The translations under genes were made by a program, and so were the position numbers. From IMG/VR virus record IMGVR_UViG_3300035208_002255, positions 64,001 to 128,000 of that record: 64,000 bases of DNA; one strand, given 5' to 3'. The DNA comes from a virus. Taxonomy: Duplodnaviria; Heunggongvirae; Uroviricota; Caudoviricetes. Shown piece by piece: positions 4,794-42,001 of this stretch. Position 1 is the first letter of the stretch; every line of letters starts with the position of its first letter. Under the pieces are notes generated by a model, which saw nothing but the letters and a program-made list of their open reading frames with translations, was not told where the DNA came from and searched no databases.

Positions 4794-5288
4794 TTATTCT
4801 TCTTTGTTCTCTTTCATCCAAGCTTCAAACTCATCAAAAGACTTGAATCTCTTCTTCATCTCTTTACGAACGTCATCCAATTTGAGTTTGTGCTTGAGCA
4901 AGATGTACCTATAAACAAAGTCATCATTGAACGCTTTAAATGAACAAACAGGACAAAGAGCTGATGGATTATAGACTTCATAGTCTCTACATGCGTCTAC
5001 AAATTTCCAAAAATCTTTGATCTTTAGAATCTCGTCCAACGCTTCATCTTCTGGTCCGCAATCAGGTTCACGAAGCTGCTTTTCAGCATCTTTGCGCCAA
5101 AGGTTTTGAACACTCTTTTTAGAGAGATCAACTTCGGTACAGGAACACGTTGTGTGACCACATGAGAATCTGGTTCTTCCAATATCCTCATCGCTGCAGG
5201 AATCATGATACGAAACAATCTCGCCACAAGCTTCACAAGTGAAACTTGTAGTACTTGAGTTTGATACAAAACCTTTACGGATTTTCAT
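4794..5288 (-). CDS. FVSNSS-tag family protein, Cys-rich (NSSTTSF variant)
   Basis: Likely start ATG 5288: MKIRKGFVSNSSTTSFTCEACG; further CxxC/CxC pairs. Confidence 0.8.
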   Translation of the reverse strand: MKIRKGFVSNSSTTSFTCEACGEIVSYHDSCSDEDIGRTRFSCGHTTCSCTEVDLSKKSVQNLWRKDAEKQLREPDCGPEDEALDEILKIKDFWKFVDACRDYEVYNPSALCPVCSFKAFNDDFVYRYILLKHKLKLDDVRKEMKKRFKSFDEFEAWMKENKEE

Positions 5289-5829
5289 CTTTGTTCTCCT
5301 GAGAATTGATCCACTCTTTGTACTCTGCGAAGTTTTTGAATCTTGACTTGATTTCCTTATGGATCTCACCAAGGTTTAATTGGAACTTAGCAATGATGTA
5401 ATCAAAGACATAATCATTGTTTATTGATTCCAACGAACAGACAGGACATAATGAAGATGGTTTATAACTTGTCCAAGAACCAAAAAGATTAGCTCTGAAT
5501 TCTTTAGGATCTTTAATATCCAGGACTTTTTGAATTTTTAAGATTTCTTTTTGGATATCTTCCGCAGACTGCCATCTATTAGGCTTTCTGCTCTTAAGAT
5601 CTTCCTGTTCTTCTTTTAGAGCTTGCCGTACTCCGTGTTCCCATTTTTTCTGGACATCCTCATCATCCATGTTTGGTTTTTCACAACACACACCATGACC
5701 ACATGAGTATTCAATGATACCCATGTCTTCAAAACCAATAGAGTCAGGGAATGCCTGAACTTCACCACAAGCATCACATATGAAACTCGTAGTGCTTGAG
5801 TTTGATATAAATCCTTCTCTAATTTTCAT
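5275..5829 (-). CDS. FVSNSS-tag family protein, Cys-rich (NSSTTSF variant)
   Basis: MKIREGFISNSSTTSFICDACG; paralogue of the adjacent gene (shared SCGH and PSxLCPVCS). Confidence 0.8.
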   Translation of the reverse strand: MKIREGFISNSSTTSFICDACGEVQAFPDSIGFEDMGIIEYSCGHGVCCEKPNMDDEDVQKKWEHGVRQALKEEQEDLKSRKPNRWQSAEDIQKEILKIQKVLDIKDPKEFRANLFGSWTSYKPSSLCPVCSLESINNDYVFDYIIAKFQLNLGEIHKEIKSRFKNFAEYKEWINSQENKDENP

Positions 5830-6310: not shown

Positions 6311-6862
6311 CTAACCTTTGGTAAAATCGTGTGTAAGAACTTCTTCACGAAGAGAATCCTGACCTTCCTTAGTCAGAACTTTAGACTCCTGTGTTGAACC
6401 ACTTAAAACACTTAAGACCCTAAGTCTTTGCAAGAACTTAGGTTGAGTACTTTTAAGCATGGGCCACAGTACAATAACTGTGGACGTACCGCTCTCGACC
6501 TCTGTGAGTCCAGCATCTCTTACCAAGAAGACATCAAGTTCCTTCTTGAGTTTTTCGAAGTCCTTAGCTTTTCCTCCAAGGACAACTTTGCGAAAAGATC
6601 CTTCTTTCCATTTCTTGGTAAGCTCTAATTTTGAATTGTACTCAAGATTTGGATTGGTAAGTTGGTTAGCAATGTATTGTGCGAGCCTTTCTATGTATGT
6701 AAATGCAAACATCTGCGCACCATGAGCAATCTGGGCACAGACCTTACCAATACTCATAGGGATATCAGTTCGAACAATATAGTATTGAACGATCGGATCT
6801 TCTTGAGACTCTCGGATTTGGATTAGTTTTTCATCATCAAAAGGATTAGGCTCTACTGGCAT
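6311..6862 (-). CDS. Peptidyl-tRNA hydrolase, Pth2 family
   Basis: IVRTDIPMSIGKVCAQIAHG, RKVVL, VRDAGLTEV...T motifs. Confidence 0.9.
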   Translation of the reverse strand: MPVEPNPFDDEKLIQIRESQEDPIVQYYIVRTDIPMSIGKVCAQIAHGAQMFAFTYIERLAQYIANQLTNPNLEYNSKLELTKKWKEGSFRKVVLGGKAKDFEKLKKELDVFLVRDAGLTEVESGTSTVIVLWPMLKSTQPKFLQRLRVLSVLSGSTQESKVLTKEGQDSLREEVLTHDFTKG

Positions 6863-20760: not shown

Positions 20761-21441
20761 TTACCAAAAAGTTCTTACAAATTTTAGAGTTACAGAAACT
20801 GTAACATTTGCTACACCAGATTTAACAGTTTCTGGAGTATCCAATTCATCTACATTCCACATCGGAGAGAACGTTTCTGCAATTGAAGTTTTTGAAAACT
20901 CTTGATTTTGATTCCCATCACGAATATCCCAAGATTCAAGAGTAAAATTACCATGATCAATGCCGGCCATTTTACATTGACCATCAAAGTTCTTTTTAGC
21001 TAAATTGAACGCAAGTTCCATTGCTTGTGTTTTTAGGTCAGTATCATTTTTGATAGAGAATACGGGAGAATCCATTTGAACATCATTGATTGATGTTAAT
21101 GCATCCATAACCTCGTTAACCTTAGACACATCATTAATCCTAAAGGTACAAGTATGAGTATACCTGTATCCAGTGGATTCATGTTTCCCGGTTTTTGAGT
21201 TGTATTCCTTCTCAGGATCAACTTCACTAGAAGTTTTATGAGACCCAGAGCACACAAATCCGAAAGATTTAACAACACTGTCAATCTCTAGAATCTTGGA
21301 TCTAATAGCTTTTTTACATTCGACCGTTGTAGGTTTTAGTACTGAAGTTTTAAGCCTAAAAGTACAGCGGTCAAAAGCAGCATTAACTTGTCCAACAGCA
21401 GTGATATTAATTGTTGAATGATACGTTGTCATAAAACTCAC
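20761..21441 (-). CDS. SIMPL (DUF541) domain protein
   Basis: INITAVGQVNAAFD, GYRYTH, F..KND..LKTQAMELA, VSVTLKF. Confidence 0.75.
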   Translation of the reverse strand: MSFMTTYHSTINITAVGQVNAAFDRCTFRLKTSVLKPTTVECKKAIRSKILEIDSVVKSFGFVCSGSHKTSSEVDPEKEYNSKTGKHESTGYRYTHTCTFRINDVSKVNEVMDALTSINDVQMDSPVFSIKNDTDLKTQAMELAFNLAKKNFDGQCKMAGIDHGNFTLESWDIRDGNQNQEFSKTSIAETFSPMWNVDELDTPETVKSGVANVTVSVTLKFVRTFW

Positions 21442-22645: not shown

Positions 22646-23005
22646 TCATCTTGGACTCCAAATAATTTTCAGGTCATCAGTTTCTACAGAAAGGTTCGTT
22701 GAGCAAAGGGTTGAACTTATCCGCGAACCTGCATTATCAGAATGAGATCCGGAATAAATATGAATGTCATCTTTGGTAAGTTGTGATAGAGGTATATCTA
22801 TATCTCTGTACCACCCAACTGAAACAGTCTCGTGCTCTTCTATATTATCCAAGATACCATTATAGAAAGTACCGGGACCGAACTCAAATCCTAGAGCTAC
22901 ATCTCCAAGAGCATTACGAAGTTTTCCCTCTGTTAACTCCCCTTTACATATGATTACAAATGAGGAAGAGCTAGAATTGCTTACAAAACCTGTACGAATT
23001 TTCAT
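22646..23005 (-). CDS. FVSNSS-tag family protein
   Basis: MKIRTGFVSNSSSSSFVIICK. Confidence 0.85.
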   Translation of the reverse strand: MKIRTGFVSNSSSSSFVIICKGELTEGKLRNALGDVALGFEFGPGTFYNGILDNIEEHETVSVGWYRDIDIPLSQLTKDDIHIYSGSHSDNAGSRISSTLCSTNLSVETDDLKIIWSPR

Positions 23006-23007
23006 TG

Positions 23008-23262
23008 CTATTCCTTAATGGTAAAGTGTGGCTGCATCTGAACATCAACAACTTTCATTGTTGTCTGTTCTCCGTATTGAGAGTTTATGAACAACGGAAT
23101 CTGTTCATCCATTAAGGTTTCTTCCAGCCATACACTAATCTGTTTCAAAGCTGTTTCGTTGCTACTTTTACTTCCGTAGTCTTTGAAACGAACTCTAACA
23201 GTAATATTCGCCTGAACTTCAACTTCACCATCAGACACGGAAACCTCCAAAATCGTCAACAA
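23008..23262 (-). CDS. hypothetical protein
   Basis: 84-aa ORF abutting the downstream gene. Confidence 0.5.
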   Translation of the reverse strand: MLTILEVSVSDGEVEVQANITVRVRFKDYGSKSSNETALKQISVWLEETLMDEQIPLFINSQYGEQTTMKVVDVQMQPHFTIKE

Positions 23263-23848
23263 CAGAAATTAGTTCATCAACATTCCCACAATGAAAGATT
23301 CTGCTATCATCAACGGACATCTTTTTCTCTGGGGGTTGCCAAAGAACGGGAACTTTAAGGCCGCTGTCAGACCATCGATCAGCCCACTTAATAACATTAC
23401 CAGGCTTGTCATCAATAAGCATTGTACCTTCTATTGTATGTTTCTTGTACGCTAAGATGATATCTTCTCTTGAGAACCCGGCCTTATCCATGAGCCATCT
23501 GATTCTCTCATCTGCGTAGTACCCAGGAATGGTTTTTTCATCTGGTGTACCAAAATCGGTAGTATTAACAACAATAGAAGTTACACAAATAACCTCTCCG
23601 CGAGCGCGAAGCTTGGTTAGCAACTCATCTGTGTAATCATATTTTTCTAAATTGTATATCAGTCCTGGGTTTCCAAGAATGTATGACCAGATACGATCTT
23701 TGTTCGCAACAATCTCGGGATAATTGAAAATATCCCAGTGTTCACCATCAAAAATAGGAGCTTGGATTCCAAAATGGTCAAAGCATACCTTTGCAAACAT
23801 TTTGGACCACTGAGCCATTACACCATCACAATCAATCAGAAATCGCAT
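23231..23848 (-). CDS. 5'(3')-deoxyribonucleotidase-like HAD hydrolase
   Basis: MRFLIDCDGV (DxD), LIDDKP; likely start 23848. Confidence 0.82.
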   Translation of the reverse strand: MRFLIDCDGVMAQWSKMFAKVCFDHFGIQAPIFDGEHWDIFNYPEIVANKDRIWSYILGNPGLIYNLEKYDYTDELLTKLRARGEVICVTSIVVNTTDFGTPDEKTIPGYYADERIRWLMDKAGFSREDIILAYKKHTIEGTMLIDDKPGNVIKWADRWSDSGLKVPVLWQPPEKKMSVDDSRIFHCGNVDELISVVDDFGGFRV

Positions 23849-24224
23849 AAATTCTCCTGTCTGAATTCGTGGCGCGAATGTCCTCAAGGGACAGGTTTCG
23901 ACGCATGCCTGTGGGAAGAACGTCACATTCGCCGTATCTCAAAAACCAACAAATAGAACCATTAACATAACTCGGAGTTACACTGACATTCACAAACTTT
24001 TTAGAGTTTTGATATTTAATGTCGTATTGGCAAAACCCAAGATTCTCAATCTGCTTTTTCATTAAAGTATATTTGGTTCTGAACAACTCTTTTTTGTATC
24101 CAGGTCCTTCAAAGGAACAGATATACATTTTATCAACTTTACTCCACCGAACAACAGCTTTATGCCAAGGTTTAATGATTAATGGTAATGCTGAAATGTT
24201 TGGGTTTACTTTTCTAACATTCAT
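23832..24224 (-). CDS. hypothetical protein
   Basis: 130-aa ORF. Confidence 0.5.
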   Translation of the reverse strand: MNVRKVNPNISALPLIIKPWHKAVVRWSKVDKMYICSFEGPGYKKELFRTKYTLMKKQIENLGFCQYDIKYQNSKKFVNVSVTPSYVNGSICWFLRYGECDVLPTGMRRNLSLEDIRATNSDRRIYAISD

Positions 24225-24968: not shown

Positions 24969-25136
24969 CTATTTTCCAATTTTGGATACATAAAAAAAAC
25001 CAACAGCACCACTGAGGCCTAATAATATGGAAAAATGTATCTGTCCAAAAAGAACATACAAAAGTGCATGTATTGGTATTGTGATGCTTAAAATTAAGAA
25101 GAAAAGAAGTGTTATCTTTATTACAGATGATTTCAT
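24969..25136 (-). CDS. small membrane protein
   Basis: Manual translation MKSSVIKITLLFFLILSITIPIHALLYVLFG...IGK (55 aa), ATGA overlap with PNKP stop. Confidence 0.55.
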   Translation of the reverse strand: MKSSVIKITLLFFLILSITIPIHALLYVLFGQIHFSILLGLSGAVGFFYVSKIGK

Positions 25137-26080
25137 TTGAAAAACTCCGCAGCATCACAGTACTGAAAACCACAACGCTCAGCAAAAGTTTTGTCGGTTT
25201 TCATATCCCCAACCATAATGCATTCTTTGGGATTGAGCTTATATCTCTCAATGAAATCAATACCCATTCCAGGCATTGGCTTTCTTAACCAAGATGTAAT
25301 TGGAGGAACATTAGAGTCATCATACCGATAGTCTATCGGTACTCCAAGATCGGTACATACGGAATCAAAACATGCAACACAATCTTTATGAGTTAGATCA
25401 CCTTTAGCAATACCACTTTGATTTGATGCGCCAAGCAAATGATAACCTTTAGCTTGCCAAGCTTTCAATACCTCAGCGCGGCCAGGTAGAATCCTTTGCT
25501 CAGAAACCTTTGTTGGATACTTTCCATTTCCTCCAACTGTCTCTCGAAGTGTTCCATCGAAGTCTAGAATAAGAGCCTTGTTCTTGTACTCCGGTCCCCA
25601 AACTCGAACGAAAGGAACCTTTGTAACACTAACAAATCCCTCTTCTTTCTTTGGTAACACAAGCTTGTTTCGCCAAGAGAAAAAGACGGAAGGAGGGAAA
25701 GTGTTAGGGTCGTTCTTGATAATAGGATCGTTGAACTCAGAAGGTTCAAGTACATGACCGTACCTCTGATACATTCTTCGACAAGCATTTACCTGACAAT
25801 CTTCCGAGGAAGTATTCACCCATAGCATTTCTACGGGCACATTGCCAGCGCTTTTTGCTGCATCAACGAAAACTTTGCGGTCCTCCAGAGTACAGAATAG
25901 ATTGTCTGAAATAACACTTTTGCCTTCAGCTAACGCTTCCAGCATCAGTGGAATAAGCTTTGTAATCTTACCACCAATAAGATCACGATTCAGTCGGACA
26001 AAATCTTTGTACTCAGGACTTTGAACATATGAACTCTTTCCGGCACCTGGCAACCCACCAACAAGAACGACCTTTTGCAT
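25133..26080 (-). CDS. Polynucleotide kinase / HAD phosphatase (PNKP-like)
   Basis: P-loop GGLPGAGKS; C-terminal LDFDGTL, SNQSGIA, RKPMPGM, MVGD. Confidence 0.85.
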   Translation of the reverse strand: MQKVVLVGGLPGAGKSSYVQSPEYKDFVRLNRDLIGGKITKLIPLMLEALAEGKSVISDNLFCTLEDRKVFVDAAKSAGNVPVEMLWVNTSSEDCQVNACRRMYQRYGHVLEPSEFNDPIIKNDPNTFPPSVFFSWRNKLVLPKKEEGFVSVTKVPFVRVWGPEYKNKALILDFDGTLRETVGGNGKYPTKVSEQRILPGRAEVLKAWQAKGYHLLGASNQSGIAKGDLTHKDCVACFDSVCTDLGVPIDYRYDDSNVPPITSWLRKPMPGMGIDFIERYKLNPKECIMVGDMKTDKTFAERCGFQYCDAAEFFK

Positions 26081-26457
26081 TAGTATCCACCTTCACATTT
26101 TAACTCAAAGTCATCAGTATTTATACTGATACCATTCATACAAAGGAATGCTTCTACACTATTACTGCTATCATCACCGAAATATCCGGTGTATACATGA
26201 AGACCTTTCTCGATGTTCTTAAGTAATCCTTGGGAATAACTACAACCATCACTGGCTTCTTCTTTTAGCTCTTCAATGTCAGGACTCTCTGCATTACCAA
26301 AAATACATTTACAAATGTTCTTTGACATTTTGTAAAGAGGATGATTCTCTGGAACATTAATAGCTTCCCAAATCATTTCCTCTGTTAGCTCTTTCTTAGA
26401 GATTACGGTGAAAGAACTAGAAGATGAGTTACTAACAAAACCTGTTCGGATTTTCAT
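26080..26457 (-). CDS. FVSNSS-tag family protein
   Basis: MKIRTGFVSNSSSSSFTVISK. Confidence 0.85.
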   Translation of the reverse strand: MKIRTGFVSNSSSSSFTVISKKELTEEMIWEAINVPENHPLYKMSKNICKCIFGNAESPDIEELKEEASDGCSYSQGLLKNIEKGLHVYTGYFGDDSSNSVEAFLCMNGISINTDDFELKCEGGY

Positions 26458-26466
26458 TATTCAACC

Positions 26467-26922
26467 TCATTCGTAGCAGTTGTGAGAGTACTCGCCGCCA
26501 AGGATAATTGGAACAATATCCGTTCCCATTAGACTGATAAACCTATTTTTGACTTCAGAGATTTTATCATAGTCTAATTTTTGGATATCGATCCCTGCAC
26601 AAGAACCAAAACTCGTTCCGCAATGGAATTCCAAACCAAGTGATTCTATCAAGTTTTTAATTGAAACCCATGGCTTGTGACGATCTACCTTGGTAATAAT
26701 TTCAGAACCACACCTAGGACAGAACTTTGGCTCTTCAGAACGTAGAGATGGGGTATATCGGTAATCACACTTAGAACACCCCAAATACTCTGTTTCTTCT
26801 AGATCTGAATCTGCAGTAGCTTGTTGTATGAACTTGTTCTTTAACTCATCCGTAACAATAAACCCAAGGATACAGAATGAAGATGAACTAGAGTTACTAA
26901 CAAAACCTGTTCTGATTTTCAT
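26467..26922 (-). CDS. FVSNSS-tag family protein with zinc ribbon
   Basis: Tag plus CSKC...CPRC. Confidence 0.85.
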   Translation of the reverse strand: MKIRTGFVSNSSSSSFCILGFIVTDELKNKFIQQATADSDLEETEYLGCSKCDYRYTPSLRSEEPKFCPRCGSEIITKVDRHKPWVSIKNLIESLGLEFHCGTSFGSCAGIDIQKLDYDKISEVKNRFISLMGTDIVPIILGGEYSHNCYE

Positions 26923-26928
26923 AATACC

Positions 26929-27369
26929 TCAGCAGGCGTACTCGCCAACCATAACTGAAAAATGTATGTCACCAAAAATGGCAACAAGCTTTTTATGTAA
27001 TTCGATGATGCCTTCTGGGGACAGATCTTTAACCGAACATCCAGCAATTGAGCCGTAATCAGTTTTATCAAAATAATCCATTCCAGGAACTAAACTTTCA
27101 AAAAGTTCCCAATTAGAGATTTCTTTAGGTTTAGAAATCACAGACATTTCTGTCCCACATTTCCCGCAGAATTGGGCCTTTTTCGTGTACATGCTATTAC
27201 TTCTGCCAACAACATAATCACACTTTGTACACCCCCACCAATCCTCAGTTAGGTCGTTAGCATTGGCATGTTTCTTGGCGATTGCTCTGGTTTCATCAGT
27301 AACCTCAAAACCAAGAATTGCAAACGAACTTGAACTTGAATTAGATACGAAACCTGTTCTGATTTTCAT
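26929..27369 (-). CDS. FVSNSS-tag family protein with zinc ribbon
   Basis: Tag plus CTKC...CGKC. Confidence 0.85.
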   Translation of the reverse strand: MKIRTGFVSNSSSSSFAILGFEVTDETRAIAKKHANANDLTEDWWGCTKCDYVVGRSNSMYTKKAQFCGKCGTEMSVISKPKEISNWELFESLVPGMDYFDKTDYGSIAGCSVKDLSPEGIIELHKKLVAIFGDIHFSVMVGEYAC

Positions 27370-27375
27370 AAAACC

Positions 27376-27474
27376 TCAGTGATCATACTCACCAGACATG
27401 AGTATAACTTCAATGTTTTTACCAAAGAGTTTAAAGAGCTTATCTTGCCTTCCGCATGAAAACCGGTAATCTCA
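27376..27474 (-). pseudogene. C-terminal remnant of an FVSNSS-tag paralogue
   Basis: Two frames give DEITGFHAEGK and DKLFKLFGKNIEVILMSGEYDH*, matching paralogue C-termini. Confidence 0.7.
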
Positions 27475-27912
27475 TCATCCATATTCACCAGATAGAATTA
27501 CCGGAGCACAACCGTCACCAAACAGTTCAACGATTTTTGTATGAAGCTGGATAACCTCATTCAAAGTCTTGTGCTCGATGTCCAAACCACAGACCTCATC
27601 ATAGTCGTGGGAGTCATAGAAATCAAGACCAACGGCCGCGTACCTCTCACTATCACTTTCCCACTCATACTCTATAGTACGAGTCTTTGATTCCATGGGT
27701 TGACCACATTCTGAACAGAACTTCGGGAATCCATTATCAGCTTCGTGTTCACACTTTGAACACCCCCAATATTCCTCCGTTTCATCTTCTTCATCAAGTG
27801 TCTCTTTGGCTAGTTTATAGATCTTTTCACGAATCTTTTCAGTGACTACAAAGCCAATGATTGCAAAAGAACTAGAACTTGAGTTGGATACAAAACCTGT
27901 ACGAACTTTCAT
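27475..27912 (-). CDS. FVSNSS-tag family protein with zinc ribbon
   Basis: MKVRTGFVSNSSSSSF from ATG 27912; CSKC...CSEC. Confidence 0.85.
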   Translation of the reverse strand: MKVRTGFVSNSSSSSFAIIGFVVTEKIREKIYKLAKETLDEEDETEEYWGCSKCEHEADNGFPKFCSECGQPMESKTRTIEYEWESDSERYAAVGLDFYDSHDYDEVCGLDIEHKTLNEVIQLHTKIVELFGDGCAPVILSGEYG

Positions 27913-27920
27913 GGTAAACC

Positions 27921-28289
27921 TCAATCTGCGCAATCAATTACTTGGTTTATATGTTTACAATCAGGTCCAAGAATGGACATAACTCTGGTTCTGAACTCAT
28001 CAAAAGTTGATGAACCTTCGACATCTCCATAATCACCACCACAATAGATGGTATTAGATTCACCACCATATCTGATGATTAAGTTATGCTTTTCCCCAAT
28101 CTGGATAAGAAACTTATCCAGTTCCCAATCATTATCCTCGAAATCTTTAATACGATCTTCATATCCTAGGTTCTCAAGAATTAGATTAAAAGCATCAACA
28201 TCTTTAGATTTGTCCAAACGGAAATATCTTCCAAATGCACAAAATGAAGATGAACTTGAGTTAGATACAAAGCCTGTTCTGATTTTCAT
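27921..28289 (-). CDS. FVSNSS-tag family protein
   Basis: MKIRTGFVSNSSSSSFCAFG. Confidence 0.85.
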   Translation of the reverse strand: MKIRTGFVSNSSSSSFCAFGRYFRLDKSKDVDAFNLILENLGYEDRIKDFEDNDWELDKFLIQIGEKHNLIIRYGGESNTIYCGGDYGDVEGSSTFDEFRTRVMSILGPDCKHINQVIDCAD

Positions 28290-28295
28290 AAAACC

Positions 28296-28634
28296 TCAAC
28301 CAGAATAATAGGAACCGCTGAAAATAGAAAATTCTAATTCTGTCCCAAACATTTCTTTGAGTTGTTCCTCTAGTTTTCGAACTTGTGAAAATGTCTTACC
28401 ATCGGCTCTAAAACCAATAATATTTCCATACTTAGAACTATCATCTGAATGGAACTCTAACCCTAATGATTCTGCATTTTCATAAGTCTCAGATTCATAT
28501 TCATCTTTCCACTCATCTCCCAATGATGCTTTGGCAAGCTCAATGAATTTGGGATACACCTTATCTAGCCGAATCCCAATGATACAGAATGATGAAGAGC
28601 TAGAATTGGATACAAAACCTGTACGAACTTTCAT
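28296..28634 (-). CDS. FVSNSS-tag family protein
   Basis: MKVRTGFVSNSSSSSFCIIG. Confidence 0.85.
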   Translation of the reverse strand: MKVRTGFVSNSSSSSFCIIGIRLDKVYPKFIELAKASLGDEWKDEYESETYENAESLGLEFHSDDSSKYGNIIGFRADGKTFSQVRKLEEQLKEMFGTELEFSIFSGSYYSG

Positions 28635-28640
28635 AAAACC

Positions 28641-28949
28641 TCATTGATATTCGCTGCCACCAAAAATGTTAATCGAAGGTTTCCTTTTAAGACCGATAGA
28701 TTTTATAGTCTTAAGTAATTTCTCTTTGATTTTTGCGGCACTTTGAAGTGTTTTTCCTTGAATACTAATGCCTGCAAACTTTCCATCTTCCGTATCCCAA
28801 AACTCCAACCCGGCATCTTCTAAAATTTCATCCACTTCCTTAGGAGCGTGTTCTTTAATCGCTTCTTCAACAGCGTCAGTTACCCTGAAACCAAGAATAC
28901 AGAATGATGAAGAGCTAGAGTTACTAACAAAGCCTGTACGAATTTTCAT
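28641..28949 (-). CDS. FVSNSS-tag family protein
   Basis: MKIRTGFVSNSSSSSFCILG. Confidence 0.85.
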   Translation of the reverse strand: MKIRTGFVSNSSSSSFCILGFRVTDAVEEAIKEHAPKEVDEILEDAGLEFWDTEDGKFAGISIQGKTLQSAAKIKEKLLKTIKSIGLKRKPSINIFGGSEYQ

Positions 28950-29167
28950 AACAAATCCTTTGGAAGATTACCTCTAACAGTTTCAATCCACATCTTAAGA
29001 CCCTTAATGATTACTTCGGCTTGTTCTACACCTTCTGAGTTAGGCGTTAGGTGATATCCACGCCCTCTTCCTAAGATTGTAAGCTGAGCATGATTCTTAT
29101 CATTCACTTCAAGAGTGATGTCCTGCCCATCACAGTTCTCTTCAATTTCAATTAGATCTCTTGACAT
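28946..29167 (-). CDS. hypothetical protein
   Basis: Likely start MSRD; ATGA overlap with the first array gene. Confidence 0.6.
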   Translation of the reverse strand: MSRDLIEIEENCDGQDITLEVNDKNHAQLTILGRGRGYHLTPNSEGVEQAEVIIKGLKMWIETVRGNLPKDLL

Positions 29168-29177
29168 TTTAGTTTCC

Positions 29178-29471
29178 TTAATTCCTGTTGCTACAACCAC
29201 TTTCACAACAATTGAAATTAGCTAGCAACCTTCCACATTGTGGTTTTGCTTCATTTCCAATGAAACATGATTCCCAAGAAATGGTACACAGACACGTTCC
29301 AGGATCGCAGCTAATCATTGGATTCTTCAAACCCAACAACTCAGCATGTTGTTTCGCATTGTCAATACGGTTCTGTGGGTTACAACCGAAACATAGCAAA
29401 GCTAGAATTAGAAATACTCTGTATTCACCTAGTGTTGATTGACATATGTTCCATGTTCTCAAAAAGACCAC
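29178..29471 (-). CDS. Cys-rich putative lipoprotein (start uncertain)
   Basis: LALLCFGC then many Cys. Confidence 0.45.
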   Translation of the reverse strand: MVFLRTWNICQSTLGEYRVFLILALLCFGCNPQNRIDNAKQHAELLGLKNPMISCDPGTCLCTISWESCFIGNEAKPQCGRLLANFNCCESGCSNRN

Positions 29472-29883
29472 TGTGCTCTAGCGCTGAGAAGAAAGATCCA
29501 TCATTATCCGAATACCTAAGGACTCGAATAACCTTTCCATTGTATTTTCTCTTAAAACCCTCAACTCTAGCATCTAAAATCTTCTCAATCTTTTGATCAA
29601 GAAGATCTCTTTGGTCTTTAGTTCTGGTATTGAAATAAGCTTCATGATTCTCAAAAAACACAATATTCTCTAGCAGATTCCGAATCTCTTCATCATCCGG
29701 TTCTTCTGCTTCAGTAATGTCTTTGAAGATTTCTTCAGCGTACTTCTCGTGAGAAAACTCCGTTGACGCATCCGCAAACTCCAACATCGGCATCAATTCT
29801 TCAACACTCTTTGGTAAAGCATCGAAGATTAGAATAAAGGATGATGAACTAGAGTTACTAACGAATCCTGTTCGAACCTTCAT
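29425..29883 (-). CDS. FVSNSS-tag family protein
   Basis: MKVRTGFVSNSSSSSFILIFD; RBS GGAAGGA. Confidence 0.85.
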   Translation of the reverse strand: MKVRTGFVSNSSSSSFILIFDALPKSVEELMPMLEFADASTEFSHEKYAEEIFKDITEAEEPDDEEIRNLLENIVFFENHEAYFNTRTKDQRDLLDQKIEKILDARVEGFKRKYNGKVIRVLRYSDNDGSFFSALEHSGLFENMEHMSINTR

Positions 29884-29900: not shown

Positions 29901-30101
29901 TTAAGAATCTTTCTTAAGAGCCAATTTAGCTAAATTGTGCACTGTCTCTGCTGAAGCCGCTGTAGAATCAACAATGACATTCAAAGTTTTTCTATACATA
30001 TCAACTTCAGCTCTTAACTCTTGAATAATTCTTAGATACTTTTCACGAGCAAGAACATCGGCACGTAATTCTCCTGCTCGCCGAGGTGAAAACCGTTTCA
30101 T
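29901..30101 (-). CDS. hypothetical protein
   Basis: 66-aa ORF directly after the radical SAM stop. Confidence 0.55.
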   Translation of the reverse strand: MKRFSPRRAGELRADVLAREKYLRIIQELRAEVDMYRKTLNVIVDSTAASAETVHNLAKLALKKDS

Positions 30102-31154
30102 TTATACCTCAAACACTGGACAACTAAAGTCTCCAGATGCCCTACGGTCCAACAACCTTTGCCGCCATTTCTTAGTACCCTCTCCCATCCATACATCTCG
30201 AATGAAGTCCTGGTGCTCCAAGACCTTGATCCCGGCACCAAAATCAGAGTCCTCACAGAACGAACAAGAGTAGAACTCACCATCAACATTGATGTAAGAG
30301 CTGAACAACGTACTCTCACATGGCTCGGCAAGCATCTCAAACTTCGCACGCTGAGGATGATCCTCAACTGCCTTCAAGAACTTAGGCGCACTACAAGAAT
30401 CAAACCCGAGCGGTACCCCATTCTCAAGCGAGTACTTCACTAGCTCATTGAACTGAGCTTGACTAACAGGCTTGTGATTCAACCCACGACCCTTCTTCTT
30501 CAAACTAAGAATCACAATTGCATTCAATCCATGCAACCTGTCATCATCCTTGTAATCCTTGATCGTTTCCCAAACTTGCTCAAGAGTTTCCTGGGAAAGC
30601 ATCACATGGATGTTAGTCTGCTTGAATCCACGATCCGTAAGCTTCTTCACGGAATCGTAACACTTATTCTTGTTGGCGTACCTAGAAACCGCCACGGCTC
30701 CACATAGCTCAACAAGAGTGTCTGCTGTTGCATCCGTAATATCTGCAACCGTGATGTTCGGTACAACTCCCTTAGAACGAGCGTACCTCATCATGTCAAA
30801 CAAATCCGGATTGGATGTAGCCCCGGCATCAGCTCCAAAAGCAATCTGTGTCAAGAACGGAGTTCCTTGATACTCCATCTTGTCAAGGATTCCCTTGAAG
30901 GTCTCCAATGACATGTTGCGCCCGTTCTTGGTATTGCCCTTATAGCAGAACGGACAACCATTGTTACAAATGGTTGTTACTTCAATGTCTAGAATCTCCG
31001 GAAATGGAGCCATCGCTGGATCCTCGTGCTTCGTAGCTCCCCACCTGGCAAAGAAACCATTAACCTTGTTGAAGATGTAGTTGTACCCAGGACTCTGGAT
31101 AACCTTGAGATGCTTGCCATCAATTAGGTTCAATTCAGTCATTTTTGTTTCCAA
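30102..31154 (-). CDS. Radical SAM protein with SPASM/twitch-like C-terminus
   Basis: CNNGCPFC; PCESTLFSSYINVDGEFYSCSFC; terminal SCP. Confidence 0.9.
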   Translation of the reverse strand: METKMTELNLIDGKHLKVIQSPGYNYIFNKVNGFFARWGATKHEDPAMAPFPEILDIEVTTICNNGCPFCYKGNTKNGRNMSLETFKGILDKMEYQGTPFLTQIAFGADAGATSNPDLFDMMRYARSKGVVPNITVADITDATADTLVELCGAVAVSRYANKNKCYDSVKKLTDRGFKQTNIHVMLSQETLEQVWETIKDYKDDDRLHGLNAIVILSLKKKGRGLNHKPVSQAQFNELVKYSLENGVPLGFDSCSAPKFLKAVEDHPQRAKFEMLAEPCESTLFSSYINVDGEFYSCSFCEDSDFGAGIKVLEHQDFIRDVWMGEGTKKWRQRLLDRRASGDFSCPVFEV

Positions 31155-31166
31155 TCTTTCAATCTG

Positions 31167-31562
31167 TTATTTATCAAACGAAGAGACTTCTTTATAGCAC
31201 GTACAATCTGTTAGCTTCTCTTTACACCTATGACACCAGCCATGATTTCTAATCACATTTGAATCACAAAAACTTCCATGTCCCTGACCCCACGCCGGAG
31301 GTTCCCATCCCTTAGGACGAACTGTTAGCTGATCCTCTTCAAATCCTTCAGAACCACCAACTCCCCTTTTAGGATTTAAGGATTTCTTAAAAACACATCC
31401 ATCACAATCCGAAACACATTCAAAGTTGTCAACGACAGGTAATGAACACTTTTCATTACTCTGCCGCCTAATCTCTAAAGCTACCGCATTCTGAACCTCT
31501 TCAGAACGTAAACCCTTCAAAGACTCCAAAATAGCGTCTTTTTCTTCTTTTGGTAACTTCAC
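31167..31562 (-). CDS. hypothetical Cys-rich protein
   Basis: 131-aa ORF with CxxC motifs. Confidence 0.6.
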   Translation of the reverse strand: MKLPKEEKDAILESLKGLRSEEVQNAVALEIRRQSNEKCSLPVVDNFECVSDCDGCVFKKSLNPKRGVGGSEGFEEDQLTVRPKGWEPPAWGQGHGSFCDSNVIRNHGWCHRCKEKLTDCTCYKEVSSFDK

Positions 31563-37658: not shown

Positions 37659-38468
37659 TCATGATTTCATTACCAATCCTTCTAACTCCACATATAATGG
37701 ATGATCATGCTTTCCTACTAATTCCAAAAACCACCCCATCCAATACTCCAGAGTCTCCACTTTCTGCTTTTCCCTAAATTCCTCTCCTACATACTCTATC
37801 CGACAATGCCTCATATTATCCAATCTATCACATAACTTGATCCATGGCGCTATCCCATGTCTCTTCAATCCCCTCTGATATTCCTCTGTACTCATCCCCT
37901 TCCTCTTCGTCATCGCTATCACTCCTAATACTACCTCCCTCCCAAACATCATCTCCAATATCTCTGCACTTATATCCTTCGTATCTTCTAATACATCATG
38001 TAATAATGCTATCTGTACTCCCTCAGGACAAAATATCCCATCCATCTCCGGCGTATCCATCAAGATCAATGCCACCCGCCGTACATGCTCAAAATATCTT
38101 ACCTTACGACCATCCTCCCATAGCTCCTTCCTCTCTTGCCACCTGTGCCCGTATTTGGCTAACATGTAAGCCAATTTGGTTTTTAATATTTCACTCGGCG
38201 CAAACCTCCCCTCTAATCTCCTAAAAAATGTCTCCTTATTCTCCTTCACATACCCAGAATCTCCCTCTGTATAAACTTTCCCCAAAAACCCGCTTGGATT
38301 GGAATTGACTCGTTCACGAAGCTCTGGACGATCATCTGCTTCGCGTCTAGCATCCTTCAATCCTTCTTTGAGCCACCCTTTTGATATCAAAACTTCATTC
38401 CCATTATCTACATCATATCCTATTGGTAATATCTGCTGATGTTGATGCTCATCTCTGTTATTTGTCAT
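37659..38468 (-). CDS. HD-domain protein, SpoT/Mesh1 hydrolase-like
   Basis: GHRWQ..R, YFEHVRRVA, ALLHDVLEDT, AMTK, IKLCDRLDNMR. Confidence 0.8.
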   Translation of the reverse strand: MTNNRDEHQHQQILPIGYDVDNGNEVLISKGWLKEGLKDARREADDRPELRERVNSNPSGFLGKVYTEGDSGYVKENKETFFRRLEGRFAPSEILKTKLAYMLAKYGHRWQERKELWEDGRKVRYFEHVRRVALILMDTPEMDGIFCPEGVQIALLHDVLEDTKDISAEILEMMFGREVVLGVIAMTKRKGMSTEEYQRGLKRHGIAPWIKLCDRLDNMRHCRIEYVGEEFREKQKVETLEYWMGWFLELVGKHDHPLYVELEGLVMKS

Positions 38469-39131
38469 ATCCCTATCCTTCCCCCAACCCTACCACATCC
38501 CCTCCTCCCTTTCAACCCAATTCTTCTGGTAACTCAACCAACCAAACACACACCTACCTACACCTTTACTATTTGTTAAACAATAAATAAACCCTAAAAG
38601 TTACCCCAGATCTTATATGATCTAATTAGATCCTTTTACGCGTGCGCACACCCGCGCGTAGCAATCTCTGTGCCATCCTGTACATCGTATTCTCTTATGT
38701 TACATTCCTAACTTATTGTTTTTATTCATATTTTACTCCAATAATACTATTTCCTGAAAATTACTCATAACGTAGTTATAGTTTTAAAATAAGTATTGCT
38801 ATATATGGTACATAATATATTACAATGGATTATTTGTAAAAAAGCATAGAACTTGTACCAATTTGGGAGAATAAGTAATCAAAACTTAGACAATTCGGAA
38901 AAACTCAATGACAAGAACAACTTTCGTCGAAATACAAAAAAAGAACTCTTTGGTAAAAAAAAAAAGAAGAGACCTAGCCTATCATCTTCATCATCTTAAG
39001 AGAGTGCATAGAAAACGTATTCATAAGATAAAAACGTAGTAAGAGAGAAAGAAGAAGAAGTAGTACAGGTAACAACGTAGTAAGAGAAATAGGTATAGAA
39101 CTTACCAAAGAGAGAGATAGTATTGGTCATA

Positions 39132-39252
39132 TAGAAAATCTGCCATGTATAAGAATAGAAATCTTCCATATAGAAAATCTACCATAACTACTACGAATAT
39201 TTGCCAGTATGAATATCTACTACGAATATTTGCCATAATAGAAATCTGCCAT
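39132..39252. repeat. Cluster of short direct repeats (iteron-like)
   Basis: TAGAA(A)ATCT(G/T/A)CCAT at 39132, 39156, 39171, 39239; CTACTACGAATATTTGCCA at 39188 and 39217. Confidence 0.8.
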
Positions 39253-39325
39253 AACCCTACTTTAGGGAGGCCCAGGCCGGCCAGCTGGTCAACTCGCCTA
39301 ATACCCCCGACCGGCCCATCAGACA

Positions 39326-39472
39326 ATGCTTCCGAGGCAGAACAAGGTTTGAGCCAAGCGATTGGGGATTCAACAAAACATGACACAATGTGTTACGATG
39401 TTGAATAAAACAATCCAGATATAAAGCTCCCTCGGAAAAAGGCTCCGGCTTCCCAGCCAATGCTTCCGAGGC
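39326..39472 (+). promoter_or_regulatory. ATGCTTCCGAGGC motif (copies at 39326, 39460; also 41192, 52022)
   Basis: Identical 13-mer four times; three copies lie 14-28 nt upstream of an ATG. Confidence 0.6.
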
Positions 39473-39500
39473 AAAACGGGAAGCGAAAGGTTAGCGAGCC

Positions 39501-40448
39501 ATGATTACTATCACCATCAAGTCTGTTGCCGGCGGATTCGTTGCTTTAGTCAATACCACGAAAGGTACTATCGAAGGCAAAGCTTGTACTTCGCCGAAGT
39601 TCGCTATCAAGTCACTTCGCGCCGTTACCAAGGCAATGGGCCGAGAACTACCGAAGGATGGCCTGAATATCATCGGTCCGGCCATCAAGTCCGAAGGTCC
39701 GGCCATCGAGTTCATCGAGCCTACTACCACTCCGGCCATTGAATCGGAGGAAGAAGCTCCGGACACCGAGCGTGAGCCCGAATTGCATCGAGCACTTCGG
39801 CCAGTCGAAGGCCGAATCAGCCCGGTTGACCAACCCGAACGTTGGGTCGCAATTTACAACGGCGTCAAGGCTCGGTACGGTACGGCGGACGCGGAACTTG
39901 TTCTGACGGCCATGAAGGGAATGAATTGCGCATCCCCCTTCGAGCGTGATTCGGAAGGCCGTCCGTTCCACATGTACGCGGATAACTCACAAGTCCGTGC
40001 TCCTCGGCCGGGTGAAGGTGAACGCCGTCAACTTCGGAACCCTAACGGGTACAATCGGGACTTTCAAGGGCGCACGCCCGTTGAACCTGGCAGTCTGGCC
40101 CGCGAGACAGATCCCTTCCATCCAGCCAACAAGCCGGAGCGTACTCGCCGAATGAGCCGCGCCGACCGCATGGCCCAAGGCAAAGCTGCGAATGCTGAAC
40201 TTCGGGCCAGCGACCCGGCCGGATTCGAAGCCAAGCAACTGGCTAGCCGTCTTGCAAGTCAAGCAAGCAAGGCCCAAGGTGGGGATACGGTTGCCTACAA
40301 GACCGCATTCGTTGCTGTCTGCACCTACCTCGGTGCCGGTCGTCTGGATAAGTGCGCCAAGTTCGCATCGGACCTTGGCCTGAGTGAAGTTCCGGCCGCG
40401 TGGATGGATTGGGCCGCTAAGTCCGTCGCAGCTGCCAAAGCTGCCTAA
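39501..40448 (+). CDS. hypothetical protein (GC-rich, Ala-rich)
   Basis: 315-aa ORF, first gene of the plus arm, followed by a terminator. Confidence 0.75.
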   Translation: MITITIKSVAGGFVALVNTTKGTIEGKACTSPKFAIKSLRAVTKAMGRELPKDGLNIIGPAIKSEGPAIEFIEPTTTPAIESEEEAPDTEREPELHRALRPVEGRISPVDQPERWVAIYNGVKARYGTADAELVLTAMKGMNCASPFERDSEGRPFHMYADNSQVRAPRPGEGERRQLRNPNGYNRDFQGRTPVEPGSLARETDPFHPANKPERTRRMSRADRMAQGKAANAELRASDPAGFEAKQLASRLASQASKAQGGDTVAYKTAFVAVCTYLGAGRLDKCAKFASDLGLSEVPAAWMDWAAKSVAAAKAA

Positions 40449-40470
40449 GTCCGAACGAACATCCGACCTG

Positions 40471-40500
40471 AGCCCGGCACCGAAAGGTGACCGGGCTTTT
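40471..40500 (+). terminator. Rho-independent terminator
   Basis: AGCCCGGCACC-GAAA-GGTGACCGGGCT-TTT. Confidence 0.75.
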
Positions 40501-40608
40501 GGTCGTTGCAAGGTGCATAAGGGGCAAGTCAATCCCTGCACGAGGTGACGAACACCTACAAGTTCGATAGTGGGCCTGGACAATTGCCGTATAAAACTAT
40601 CCACACCT

Positions 40609-40640
40609 AAGCCTGCAACCTACAATGGTTGTGGGCTTTT
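40609..40640 (+). terminator. Rho-independent terminator (near-identical to 43882-43913)
   Basis: AAGCCTGCAACC-TACAAT-GGTTGTGGGCTTTT. Confidence 0.7.
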
Positions 40641-40723
40641 GATGTTTGACTGCAAGAGTAACGGACCTAAGGAGGTTTTATGAGGCCATATAAGTTGGTG
40701 TGGTAGCACTAACTAAGTACGCC

Positions 40724-40807
40724 TACAATTATAATTGTACCTACAAAGGCAACCTACAATACAGTTATTGTAGGTTGAATTGTATGTAACAATTGTTACA
40801 TACAATT
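40724..40807. repeat. Three adjacent palindromes built from TACAAT/ATTGTA
   Basis: 16-bp perfect palindrome 40724-40739; 11-bp inverted repeat 40750-40777; 30-bp perfect palindrome 40778-40807. Confidence 0.9.
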
Positions 40808-40889
40808 GGTAAGAAGATGGGGAAGCGCTGTATAGGTGGGCTGTGGATCCGAAACGAAAGGAAATGTTTCGTTTTTTCGCGTACAGTCC

Positions 40890-41176
40890 CCAGGTACCTG
40901 GCGCGCTGATACCACCCCTAATACCCCCAATCAGGGTCCACCTACATATACCACCATGTAGGCAACCAGCAATTGACTCGAAGCTGTACGTTGATGCGTA
41001 CGGGCGAGGGATTCGTAATCCTGACGAGCCGCCATGGCTTTTCTAACCATGCCCCGATAAAGTCAGGGGGAAATAAAACTGGCTTGGTTATCCCTGTACG
41101 AAAAGACGAGTACCTGTTTTCTCCAAATGAATCCCAGGTACCTGGCTTGCGCACATGGGTCCTAATACCCCCAATC
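40890..41176 (+). repeat. Bipartite motif CCAGGTACCTGG-15 nt-CCTAATACCCCCAATC (x2; variant at 55833)
   Basis: Copies at 40890 and 41134 with identical spacing. Confidence 0.8.
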
Positions 41177-41225
41177 CCGGTCCTCGGGCCGATGCTTCCG
41201 AGGCGAATAAGAAAGCGAACCAACA

Positions 41226-41432
41226 ATGTCAAAGTTCACGTACAATGAAAACCTCAAACTCAAACTCGTGCCTGTGCAGGAGCGCAAGCAATACTGCCGG
41301 CATTGTGGTGAGGAAATTTCGTTGAGCATAGCAAGCATACACTTGCTAGAGTGCCGACCCGAAGTACACGATGCAATTGAACGAGAGTTCGACCGCAAAG
41401 AGGCCAGAGCGCTTGCGATTGCAGCGAACTAA
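41226..41432 (+). CDS. small zinc-finger-like protein
   Basis: CRHC...HLLEC; followed by a terminator. Confidence 0.65.
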   Translation: MSKFTYNENLKLKLVPVQERKQYCRHCGEEISLSIASIHLLECRPEVHDAIEREFDRKEARALAIAAN

Positions 41433-41445
41433 GTCCTAGCCCTTG

Positions 41446-41474
41446 AGCCCGTACCCTTGATTGGGTCGGGCTTT
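41446..41474 (+). terminator. Rho-independent terminator
   Basis: AGCCCGTACCC...GGGTCGGGCTTTT. Confidence 0.65.
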
Positions 41475-41527
41475 TGGCATTTGTAAACCAAAATTCTTTG
41501 GTAATAAGCAAACGAGAGTCCACGACA

Positions 41528-42001
41528 ATGATAAACAACAAAGCGTTCGCCATTTTCACGTTTTTCGCAGGTATTCTATGTTTCGTATTCTGCGTTGCAA
41601 CAGCAAACGGATGGAAGCCATCACTTCCAACGGCACAGGCTGCGGTCGAATCCGTGGCAGTCATTCCACAGGACATGCCGCAAAGCATTGATGTGGACGG
41701 CGAGATTGCTCCTCAGAAGATTATTCTGCCTGAGGTTATAATTGTTGCAACTCGGACGCCGAAAGTCAATCCCGGTACTGCTCGTCGTCGTCAATCTCAG
41801 GTTCAGCCTGAGGAGTCCAAGCCACTGGAATCACCTATGGGATTGGCGTCCGATGCCGCATTGAACTATCAACCCATGGCAGCTGGGTATGCAGGTCACG
41901 GTGTTCGAGGTCCGGCGATGCGTCAACCCGGTGCAGCGTTCTCACAACCCATTCGTTCAATGCACCGAGAACGTGAGACGATGGAGTTCGAGGCCAAGTA
42001 A
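41528..42001 (+). CDS. hypothetical protein with N-terminal TM/signal
   Basis: Likely start MINNKAF. Confidence 0.6.
   Translation: MINNKAFAIFTFFAGILCFVFCVATANGWKPSLPTAQAAVESVAVIPQDMPQSIDVDGEIAPQKIILPEVIIVATRTPKVNPGTARRRQSQVQPEESKPLESPMGLASDAALNYQPMAAGYAGHGVRGPAMRQPGAAFSQPIRSMHRERETMEFEAK

Follow-up and report, generated by a model that had tools for sequence, protein, structure and literature searches.

Why do eleven genes within one stretch of phage DNA begin with the same 16 residues, and what reads those residues? The stretch, called the window below, is the whole of a 64-kb (64,000-nucleotide) sequence from a large, uncultured Caudoviricetes phage (IMG/VR record IMGVR_UViG_3300035208_002255, positions 64,001 to 128,000). 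Lists of its open reading frames (ORFs) and a six-frame motif search place in it 11 genes, every one on the minus strand, that open with an N-terminal peptide of consensus MK(I/V)R-x-GF(V/I)SNSS(S/T)(S/T)SF, which we refer to as the tag. We suggest that the tag is probably the docking and substrate motif of a radical S-adenosylmethionine (SAM) enzyme encoded at 30102-31154 and that, most likely, this one enzyme grips and modifies many otherwise unrelated phage proteins by means of it. The enzyme, the tagged genes and the untagged ORFs between them are as follows, with lengths in amino acids (aa).

30102..31154, minus strand: radical SAM enzyme, 350 aa, heading the array (Pfam PF04055, 36.6 bits against a cut-off of 29.5)
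29901..30101, minus strand: untagged ORF, 66 aa, between the enzyme and the first tagged gene; no Pfam or NCBIfam match
29425..29883, minus strand: tagged protein, 152 aa, the first tagged one after the enzyme (PHROG 7397 best match, E 3.6e-12)
28946..29206, minus strand: untagged ORF, 86 aa, between the first tagged gene and the array (from the ORF list; no Pfam match)
28641..28949, minus strand: tagged protein, 102 aa, minimal body without a zinc ribbon; the member folded with AlphaFold2 (AF2) and docked in the complex model
28296..28634, minus strand: tagged protein, 112 aa, same body family as 28641, without a zinc ribbon
27921..28289, minus strand: tagged protein, 122 aa, related body, without a zinc ribbon
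27475..27912, minus strand: tagged protein, 145 aa, CxxC...CxxC zinc-ribbon insert; the tag starts at the ATG at 27912
26929..27369, minus strand: tagged protein, 146 aa, zinc-ribbon insert
26467..26922, minus strand: tagged protein, 151 aa, zinc-ribbon insert
26080..26457, minus strand: tagged protein, 125 aa, of a different body family in common with 22646-23005; cluster of 41 members
22646..23005, minus strand: tagged protein, 119 aa, detached copy of the 26080 body family
5275..5829, minus strand: tagged variant (MKIREGFISNSSTTSF), 184 aa, Cys-rich body directly after the tag; cluster of 31 members
4794..5288, minus strand: tagged variant (MKIRKGFVSNSSTTSF), 164 aa, paralogue of 5275-5829, overlapping its end by 14 nucleotides

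An earlier, sequence-only reading had described seven consecutive genes at 26080-28949, further copies at 29425-29883 and 22646-23005 and two variants within 4794-5829, all sharing the 16-residue start, and each of them was found where it had been placed. The seven array genes run consecutively from 28949 down to 26080, and the motif occurs at only 11 places in the six-frame search of the window, each the start of an ORF; the whole 169-kb contig holds 16 copies. For two genes the true starts are the ATGs at 27912 and 5288, where the ORF lister had picked upstream TTGs, and a ribosome-binding site (AGGAG) precedes the ATG at 5288. TGAGGT, said earlier to precede most copies in the array, lies upstream of six of the seven, and at the two genes where it was traced (26457 and 27912) its TGA is the stop codon of the preceding gene, confirming the proposed overlap of a stop codon with a ribosome-binding site.

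Eleven residues (M1, K2, R4, G6, F7, S9, N10, S11, S12, S15 and F16) are invariant in all 11 window tags. The serine codons at positions 9, 12, 14 and 15 are a mixture of TCN and AGY, arginine is written as CGN or AGA, and over the first 48 nucleotides, in which 11 of the 16 residues are invariant, the copies have a mean nucleotide identity of 74% (56-90%). Because the Ser and Arg codons switch and the first 48 nucleotides are only 74% identical, selection appears to be on the tag peptide and not on the DNA, as the synonymous mixing of Ser codons had already led the earlier reading to hold. Behind the tag, the remainders of the proteins (the bodies) fall into at least four families. A CxxC...CxxC zinc-ribbon insert is present in the bodies at 26467, 26929 and 27475 and absent from the related ones at 27921, 28296 and 28641, the same three-and-three division that had been noticed before. 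The observed features of the 11 genes are beyond chance.

The tag extends far beyond this virus. A profile built from the window's 11 copies, of the kind that the sequence-only reading had proposed for a search with tabulated neighbours, was run against 1.84 billion proteins. With E 0.001 as the limit it matched 17,168 representatives of clusters formed at 50% identity, nearly all of them from residue 1. Among the loci fetched, the start codon lies exactly six residues before F7 in 410 of 419 distinct tagged ORFs, and information content is about 4 bits at positions 1-16 and below 0.6 bits past position 18. N10-S11-S12 is found in 447 of 449 matches anchored on residues 1-7 only, the two exceptions being chance matches. 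Some other positions are more permissive: S9 tolerates Gly or Ala, and positions 13 and 14 accept Thr, Ala, Cys, Gln and Val in place of Ser, while S15 seldom varies and position 16 is Phe or Tyr.

The bodies are short and diverse. The median tagged protein is 131 aa long (5-95%: 80-206), and 397 distinct ones fall into 119 BLAST-level body clusters, 87 of which are singletons. The body cluster of 29425-29883, whose homologues reach down to 26% identity, has 31 members. Comparison of 94 representative bodies with Pfam found no domain except one weak zinc ribbon, and Pfam and NCBIfam searches with the window's tagged proteins gave sub-threshold zinc-ribbon matches only. PHROG 7397, which is unannotated, is the only PHROG matched among the 94 diverse bodies, 13 of which match it. 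Each of the 10 window proteins that were scanned matches the PHROG over its first 18-90 positions; besides 29425-29883, nine do so at E 9e-6 to 4e-3, mostly via positions 1-18. PHROG 7397 is one body family plus the tag, and the tag is far wider than the PHROG. Five database proteins with apparently 'internal' tags (P0153, P0155, P0165, P0170 and P0191) are head-to-tail fusions of two tagged genes in which the second Met is retained; they could stem from loss of a stop codon, from faulty gene calling or from stop-codon recoding in those phages.

Structure prediction places the tag outside the fold of the protein that carries it. The one protein folded, the 102-aa member at 28641-28949, was modelled with AF2 from a 58-sequence alignment with a mean predicted local distance difference test (pLDDT) score of 82.8. 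In the model, residues 1-13 are coil with no secondary structure (pLDDT about 55), and the body follows as a strand (14-22), two helices, a hairpin, a long helix and a last strand (pLDDT about 90). A PDB-wide fold search with the body (VIA) gave a best Z of 5.6, to a generic split beta-alpha-beta arrangement, and the structural matches begin at about residue 14-17. A search of BFVD with the body returned nothing at E 0.001 or better, a search of the AlphaFold DB clusters returned unnamed proteins only (E 5e-3 or weaker), and ESM Atlas look-ups with two tagged proteins returned unnamed viral clusters only. Because the N-terminal tail is invariant yet unstructured, the tag looks like a linear motif that is read by a partner, and not like an element of the fold. 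The sequence-only reading had named the opposite outcome, in which the tag is no more than the opening strand of a single known fold; what we find instead are residues 1-13 unstructured in the model, no clear match to a known fold, and many unrelated body clusters.

The candidate partner heads the array. Besides its PF04055 score, it has the CxxxCxxC cluster motif (C63, C67 and C70), invariant in 34 of 34 sequences, and the barrel fold that are features of the radical SAM superfamily. Four further cysteines (254, 279, 297 and 345) are invariant in the same 34 sequences, C165 is present in 33 and C300 in 18. In the SPASM/twitch subfamily (PF13186, TIGR04085) a Cys-rich C-terminal domain binds one auxiliary cluster (twitch) or two (SPASM). 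The four C-terminal cysteines suffice for one such cluster; the full seven-cysteine SPASM motif is not present, and PF13186 does not match the window enzyme but is on record for some homologues. The enzyme's family is large and well conserved: 2763 clusters reach E 1e-5 or better, and many of them are about 55% identical. The AF2 model of the enzyme (pLDDT 90.2) has a small four-stranded N-terminal beta domain ahead of the barrel. Its best match among solved folds is SuiB with peptide (5v1t; Z 22.6, root-mean-square deviation 3.6 A over 307 residues, model residues 12-349), followed by SkfB (6efn; Z 20.7), then CteB, PqqE and anSME (about 17.5) and PFL activase (11.6); the C-terminal part superposes on SuiB, SkfB and anSME.

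Tag and enzyme are linked across genomes. Enzyme-seeded viral loci were drawn from IMG/VR with 10 kb on each side, using an alignment as the query (a single-protein query found nothing), and in 64 of the 80 loci one or more tags lie within 10 kb, for a total of 252. After removal of duplicates, 69 distinct loci remain, in which all 228 tags are on the enzyme's strand, 193 downstream of it and 35 upstream, with equal DNA searched on both sides. Conversely, of 58 loci seeded with the tag, 38 have the enzyme no more than 10 kb away, and it lies upstream on the same strand in nearly all of them. Among ten further records the enzyme was found elsewhere in six, including both records that are at least 90% complete, and the four without it are only 25-79% complete. 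Clustering of all ORFs from 81 loci showed that only tagged families recur with the enzyme, and no protease, transporter or second enzyme does so; the 66-aa ORF at 29901-30101 is not among the families recurring in six or more of these loci. Because the genes share a strand and an order, with stop codons overlapping the next ribosome-binding site, the enzyme and the tagged genes are probably transcribed together. DNA of the window was found in groundwater and landfill metagenome runs, with no RNA run among those listed.

The enzyme is also encoded in 175 cultured phage records, among them RB43, KP15, GAP161 and many T4-like phages of Klebsiella, Enterobacter and Cronobacter; among T4-like phages in culture, the system is found in those of E. 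coli, Klebsiella, Enterobacter and Cronobacter. In Klebsiella phage KP15 the enzyme is KP15_135, and two tagged genes, KP15_97 and KP15_102, lie about 20 kb away. These two genes flank a 738-aa vWA/MIDAS protein, KP15_100 (GU295964.1, 66515-70885). The enzyme was found, again with tag arrays, on contigs binned into bacterial and archaeal metagenome-assembled genomes (MAGs) as well.

A model of the complex suggests how the two could meet. The enzyme and the 102-aa tagged protein were predicted together with SAM and two 4Fe-4S clusters, using our own unpaired alignments, and the complex scored 0.73 (0.73, 0.70 and 0.80 in three runs, which have 51-67% of contacts in common) against 0.02 for the best of three controls. 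In calibration, the 0.73 mark was reached by 58 of 80 solved complexes and by 2 of 110 mismatched pairs. On the tagged protein the interface consists of tag residues 1-11 only; on the enzyme it comprises residues 32-39 and 42-45 together with the barrel strand tips at 54, 103-105, 131-135, 151-155, 179-183, 214-216, 252 and 274-277, and many of these residues are invariant. Tag residues 1-6 are modelled along the enzyme strand 32-39 and 42-45 (invariant G33, F35, R37, W38, G39 and D45), and F7 and V8 reach the tips of the barrel strands (103, 131, 133, 151-153 and 179), with F7 deep in the barrel and the site adjoining invariant Q103, N133, T135, N181, H183 and D252.

Covariation bears on the same contact independently of the docking, as the alignments in the complex job were unpaired. 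Tag residue 3 is uniform within a genome and differs between genomes, being mostly Ile or Val and sometimes Thr, Lys, Ser or Gln. In the 63 loci with at least two tags, the enzyme column that says most about the polarity of tag residue 3, out of 296 variable ones, is residue 36, for which the model also gives the closest contact with that tag residue; residue 274, another listed contact, ranks 16th. The two residues are both apolar in 45 loci and both polar in 10, with 4 loci of each mixed type (Fisher p 5.9e-6, uncorrected for phylogeny), and Lys-3 tags pair with Glu-36 enzymes. The state of tag residue 3 changes at least 12 times on the enzyme tree. Further into the tag, a single lineage (L142, contig JAZNJG010000142.1 of the MAG 'Bacilli bacterium') has W7 and G9 in all four of its tags (MKIRNGWVGNSSSSSF). 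Only 7 residues of its enzyme are unique among 107 family members, and three of these (M131, V153 and D155), which replace otherwise near-invariant alanines, fall in the 33-residue interface (hypergeometric P 0.02). The changes in the L142 tag and enzyme would form a natural compensatory pair. Taken together, covariation modestly supports a direct, extended-strand contact between tag and enzyme.

The order of events that we propose would begin with co-transcription of the enzyme and the tagged genes. The free tail (residues 1-13) would then bind, M1-G6 adding a strand onto the enzyme strand G33-F35-R37-W38-G39 with D45, in a pairing that would resemble that of a leader peptide on the recognition element of a maturase for peptides that are made on the ribosome and modified after translation (RiPPs). 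From F7 onward the tail would run into the barrel beside SAM and the iron-sulfur cluster, where hydrogen abstraction would lead to its modification, most likely at N10-S11-S12, with assistance from one auxiliary cluster held by C254, C279, C297 and C345. The tail would accordingly act as a 'leader' (residues 1-6, strand pairing) and a 'core' (7 to about 12, in the barrel) carried on whole proteins, and one enzyme would mature many unrelated proteins, nine of them adjacent to it here and 16 in the contig. Conservation makes N10-S11-S12 the likeliest site, and plausible candidate reactions are conversion of Ser to formylglycine, a C-C or ether crosslink to F7 or F16, epimerisation, and cleavage. 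A Met that precedes Lys is not removed by methionine aminopeptidase, and with Lys at position 2 of the tag Met1 should therefore stay. From their size, diversity and genomic setting, we would guess that the bodies are host-takeover or anti-defence proteins. A larger idea, on which we find ourselves evenly divided, is that large phages possess a general and hitherto undescribed protein-arming system, in which a single change at N10-S11-S12 (for example an aldehyde, a crosslink or a D-residue), made on the free tails of dozens of unrelated small proteins, would be needed by their host-takeover or anti-defence arsenal. The sequence-only reading had seen in the tag a common modification, processing or targeting signal on a diversifying effector family, and a role in modification or processing is supported by a tail predicted to lie outside the fold, near-obligate linkage to the enzyme in operon order, docking relative to controls and covariation at the contact.

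A number of observations weigh against substrate docking. Adjacency is not strict: no partner lies within 10 kb in 16 of the 80 loci seeded with the enzyme or in 20 of the 58 seeded with the tag. A single body was folded, and the tail could pack differently in others. The favourable docking score may reflect memory of the solved SuiB-SuiA, CteB-CteA and anSME-peptide complexes; the job used our own alignments and ligands, unlike the tool's calibration, and the body of the partner is poorly folded in the complex (pLDDT 39-42). When the changes at tag residue 3 and enzyme residue 36 are reduced to independent pairs there are 6, of which 4.3 go the same way and 0.2 the opposite way (median p 0.125, underpowered), and the W7/G9 case is one lineage. 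A profile of the enzyme family found no match at E 0.01 or better among all PDB sequences, and with no sequence match to a solved radical SAM enzyme a reaction type is therefore not transferable. No mass or proteomic data on modification of the tag were found.

Part of this uncertainty could be taken up by a model in which the tagged proteins bind the enzyme without being its substrates, as interchangeable adaptor or regulatory subunits or as pseudo-substrate inhibitors, so that the enzyme is steered or gated to another target, which might be a nucleic acid, a small molecule or a protein of the host. The evidence is, after all, of linkage and predicted binding and not of chemistry, the diverse bodies could be specificity modules, and nucleotide-metabolism genes lie near some relatives, as do those for a polynucleotide kinase (PNK)/HAD protein and NT5C in the window. 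We nevertheless consider such roles, and the redirected enzyme that they imply, unlikely: in the complex model the tag takes up the place in the barrel that a substrate must have, N10-S11-S12 is invariant beyond the docking strand, which suggests a reactive site over a mere anchor, and the closest solved folds modify the peptide that they bind. Less likely still, in our judgement, is a sorting signal for capsid packaging, secretion or degradation that acts independently of an enzyme that is a mere neighbour. The internal proteins of T4 are a precedent for a common N-terminal signal, the tag is strictly N-terminal, tagged genes occur in the hypervariable small-gene regions of T4-like phages, and middle promoters are annotated around the KP15 enzyme gene. 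A bystander enzyme, however, sits poorly with genome-level co-occurrence that persists at separations of 20 kb or more, with a polar, same-strand gene order, with docking relative to controls and with contact covariation, and the tag has neither the hydrophobic core of a signal peptide nor an acidic residue as at T4 prohead-protease sites.

The two remaining explanations need no partner protein. If the tag were the first element of one ancient and much diverged fold, required for folding or oligomerisation, one could understand why residues 14-18 (S-S-F and two hydrophobic residues) start strand 1 of the body and why several window copies are homologous over their whole length. We think this improbable to a greater degree than a sorting role, as residues 1-13 are low-confidence coil in the model, conservation falls from about 4 bits to below 0.6 bits past residue 18, opposite to the pattern of a fold core, the 397 proteins divide into 119 body clusters at BLAST level, and neither the link to the enzyme nor the covariation is explained. 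Conservation at the level of nucleic acid, as a 5' coding element for translation initiation, RNA stability or recombination between paralogues, could be read into the TGAGGT upstream of six array genes and the tight packing of the genes; with codons that switch, 74% mean nucleotide identity against 11 of 16 invariant residues, and the same peptide in very distant phages, it is close to refuted and we give it almost no credence.

If substrate docking is correct, how does the system compare with those already known? In the literature searched we found no paper with the tag motif or a function for the phage enzyme family, nothing linking RB43, KP15 or Slopekvirus to that family, and no description of the system, in agreement with the earlier remark that no described function was known. 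The nearest known systems are RiPP maturases that have SPASM or twitch domains and bind their peptide through an N-terminal domain. SuiB, which makes the Lys-Trp crosslink of streptide, SkfB and CteB are the best structural matches over nearly the whole enzyme, N-terminal domain included, and have in common with it the CxxxCxxC motif and C-terminal auxiliary cysteines. They recognise a ribosomal substrate through a conserved peptide, as is predicted here, and are encoded next to their substrate genes, as is proposed here; RiPP maturases sometimes serve several substrates, which the enzyme here would do too. The N-terminal domain aligns with those of SuiB and SkfB, and it is there that peptide pairing is predicted (0.73 against 0.02), but with about 45 residues in four beta strands it is not a full winged-helix recognition element, and only four auxiliary cysteines are invariant. 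Unlike RiPP precursors, which consist of short leader and core peptides, the proposed substrates are proteins of 80-200 aa with predicted folded bodies, the conserved peptide is only the 16 N-terminal residues, seemingly leader and core in one, and no protease or exporter recurs with the enzyme in the 81 loci.

The sulfatase-maturing enzymes anSME and AtsB resemble our proposal in that a whole protein is modified, with Ser or Cys converted to formylglycine in a short motif near the domain N-terminus. The anSME fold is related (Z about 17.5), and the serine-rich tag makes chemistry of this type plausible by analogy. However, the anSME target motif, (C/S)-x-(P/A)-x-R, is not in the tag, no sulfatase was found by Pfam among the 94 bodies, and anSME has two auxiliary clusters and one substrate family, where the enzyme here would serve dozens of unrelated bodies.

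Two other radical SAM chemistries were compared with the tag. Cyclophane enzymes crosslink aromatic-x-Ser triplets such as F-V-S, and the tag, like the substrates of the triceptide and FxSxx-COOH/FxsB systems, holds such a triplet in F7-V8-S9. Cyclophane motifs are C-terminal or repeated, whereas the tag motif is N-terminal and its invariant residues are N10-S11-S12; models of cyclophane maturases match the enzyme at noise level only (AmcB, E 0.027). A universal F7-S9 cyclophane was rejected, S9 being Gly or Ala in some real tags. In glycyl-radical enzymes, which are large barrel enzymes with a PflA-type activase, the loop reads R-V-x-G-[FYW], with Arg three residues before Gly. Glycyl-radical activation of G6 was also rejected, because in the tag Arg lies two residues before Gly (R4-x-G6-F7) and the site is in the unstructured tail of a small protein, as was the identity of the enzyme as a glycyl-radical activase, its fold being far nearer to SuiB (Z 22.6) than to PFL activase (11.6). 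The capsid targeting sequence of T4 is an N-terminal signal cut by the prohead protease after an acidic residue; the invariant positions of the tag hold no Glu or Asp, and a Glu occurs in one copy at the variable position 5. Families of enzymes that make three-residue cyclophanes (triceptides) have been reviewed (PMC11851443).

In the HXS anti-phage system, the radical SAM enzymes HxsB and HxsC mature a protein effector, HxsA, which has His-x-Ser repeats, at the Ser-containing motif SHRSS, and maturation is coupled to N-terminal processing (PMC13128918). That system is bacterial and consists of two radical SAM enzymes, HxsD and a single repeat effector that is exported to the periplasm (PMC13128918). 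It shows that radical SAM enzymes can arm protein effectors in the conflict between phage and host. Unlike HXS, the system described here is phage-borne, with one enzyme, a single-copy N-terminal motif without His and many proposed substrates; the features of HXS were not found in it, and the match of the enzyme to the HxsC4 model is weak (E 0.015, 14.5 bits against a 500-bit cut-off). By these comparisons the system would be a radical SAM maturase with a dedicated substrate motif, and it lacks defining features of each system named above.

Several other genes lie beside the enzyme and the tagged genes. A 131-aa Cys-rich protein is encoded directly upstream of the enzyme gene on the same strand (31167-31562, minus); it has no family match and is not among the families that recur with the enzyme elsewhere. 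Two nucleotides past the variant genes at 4794-5829 begins a gene for a membrane M50 peptidase of the site-2 protease type (3830-4792, minus). We considered it as a leader peptidase or general partner and rejected it, as it is not among the families recurring in other loci; it is probably not part of the system. At the far end of the array, a fused P-loop kinase and HAD phosphatase of the polynucleotide kinase-phosphatase type (25133-26080, minus) overlaps the last array gene by one base, 26080, which belongs to its start codon and to that gene's stop codon, and the NT5C nucleotidase (23231-23926) and a SIMPL/DUF541 protein (20761-21441) come after it.

Elsewhere in the window, an HD-domain protein of the HD_4 type, the RelA/SpoT hydrolase kind (37659-38468, minus; 24.9 bits, just below the Pfam cut-off), and a PTH2 peptidyl-tRNA hydrolase (6311-6862, minus; 66.6 bits) are auxiliary phage genes related to translation or stress. 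GC skew goes from strongly negative to positive near 39 kb, the point at which the coding strand changes from minus to plus, and at 40-42 kb GC content rises from about 0.40 to 0.52; this region (about 39000-42000) could be a point of divergent transcription, possibly an origin, or a mosaic joint. In a near-identity DNA search, a 10-kb piece of the window matched no cultured phage.

Unexplained phage proteins that carry the tag are very numerous, as the 17,168 cluster representatives counted above indicate. If the proposed role is true, radical SAM maturation would be directed at a proteome-wide tag and not at one peptide or one enzyme, and a radical SAM reaction new to proteins could come to light. 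A short, portable N-terminal tag specific to one enzyme would have uses in protein engineering as well. Because phages that are cultured and easily handled have the system, the question is directly testable; if the proposal holds, a single experiment would account for some of the biology behind thousands of phage genes.

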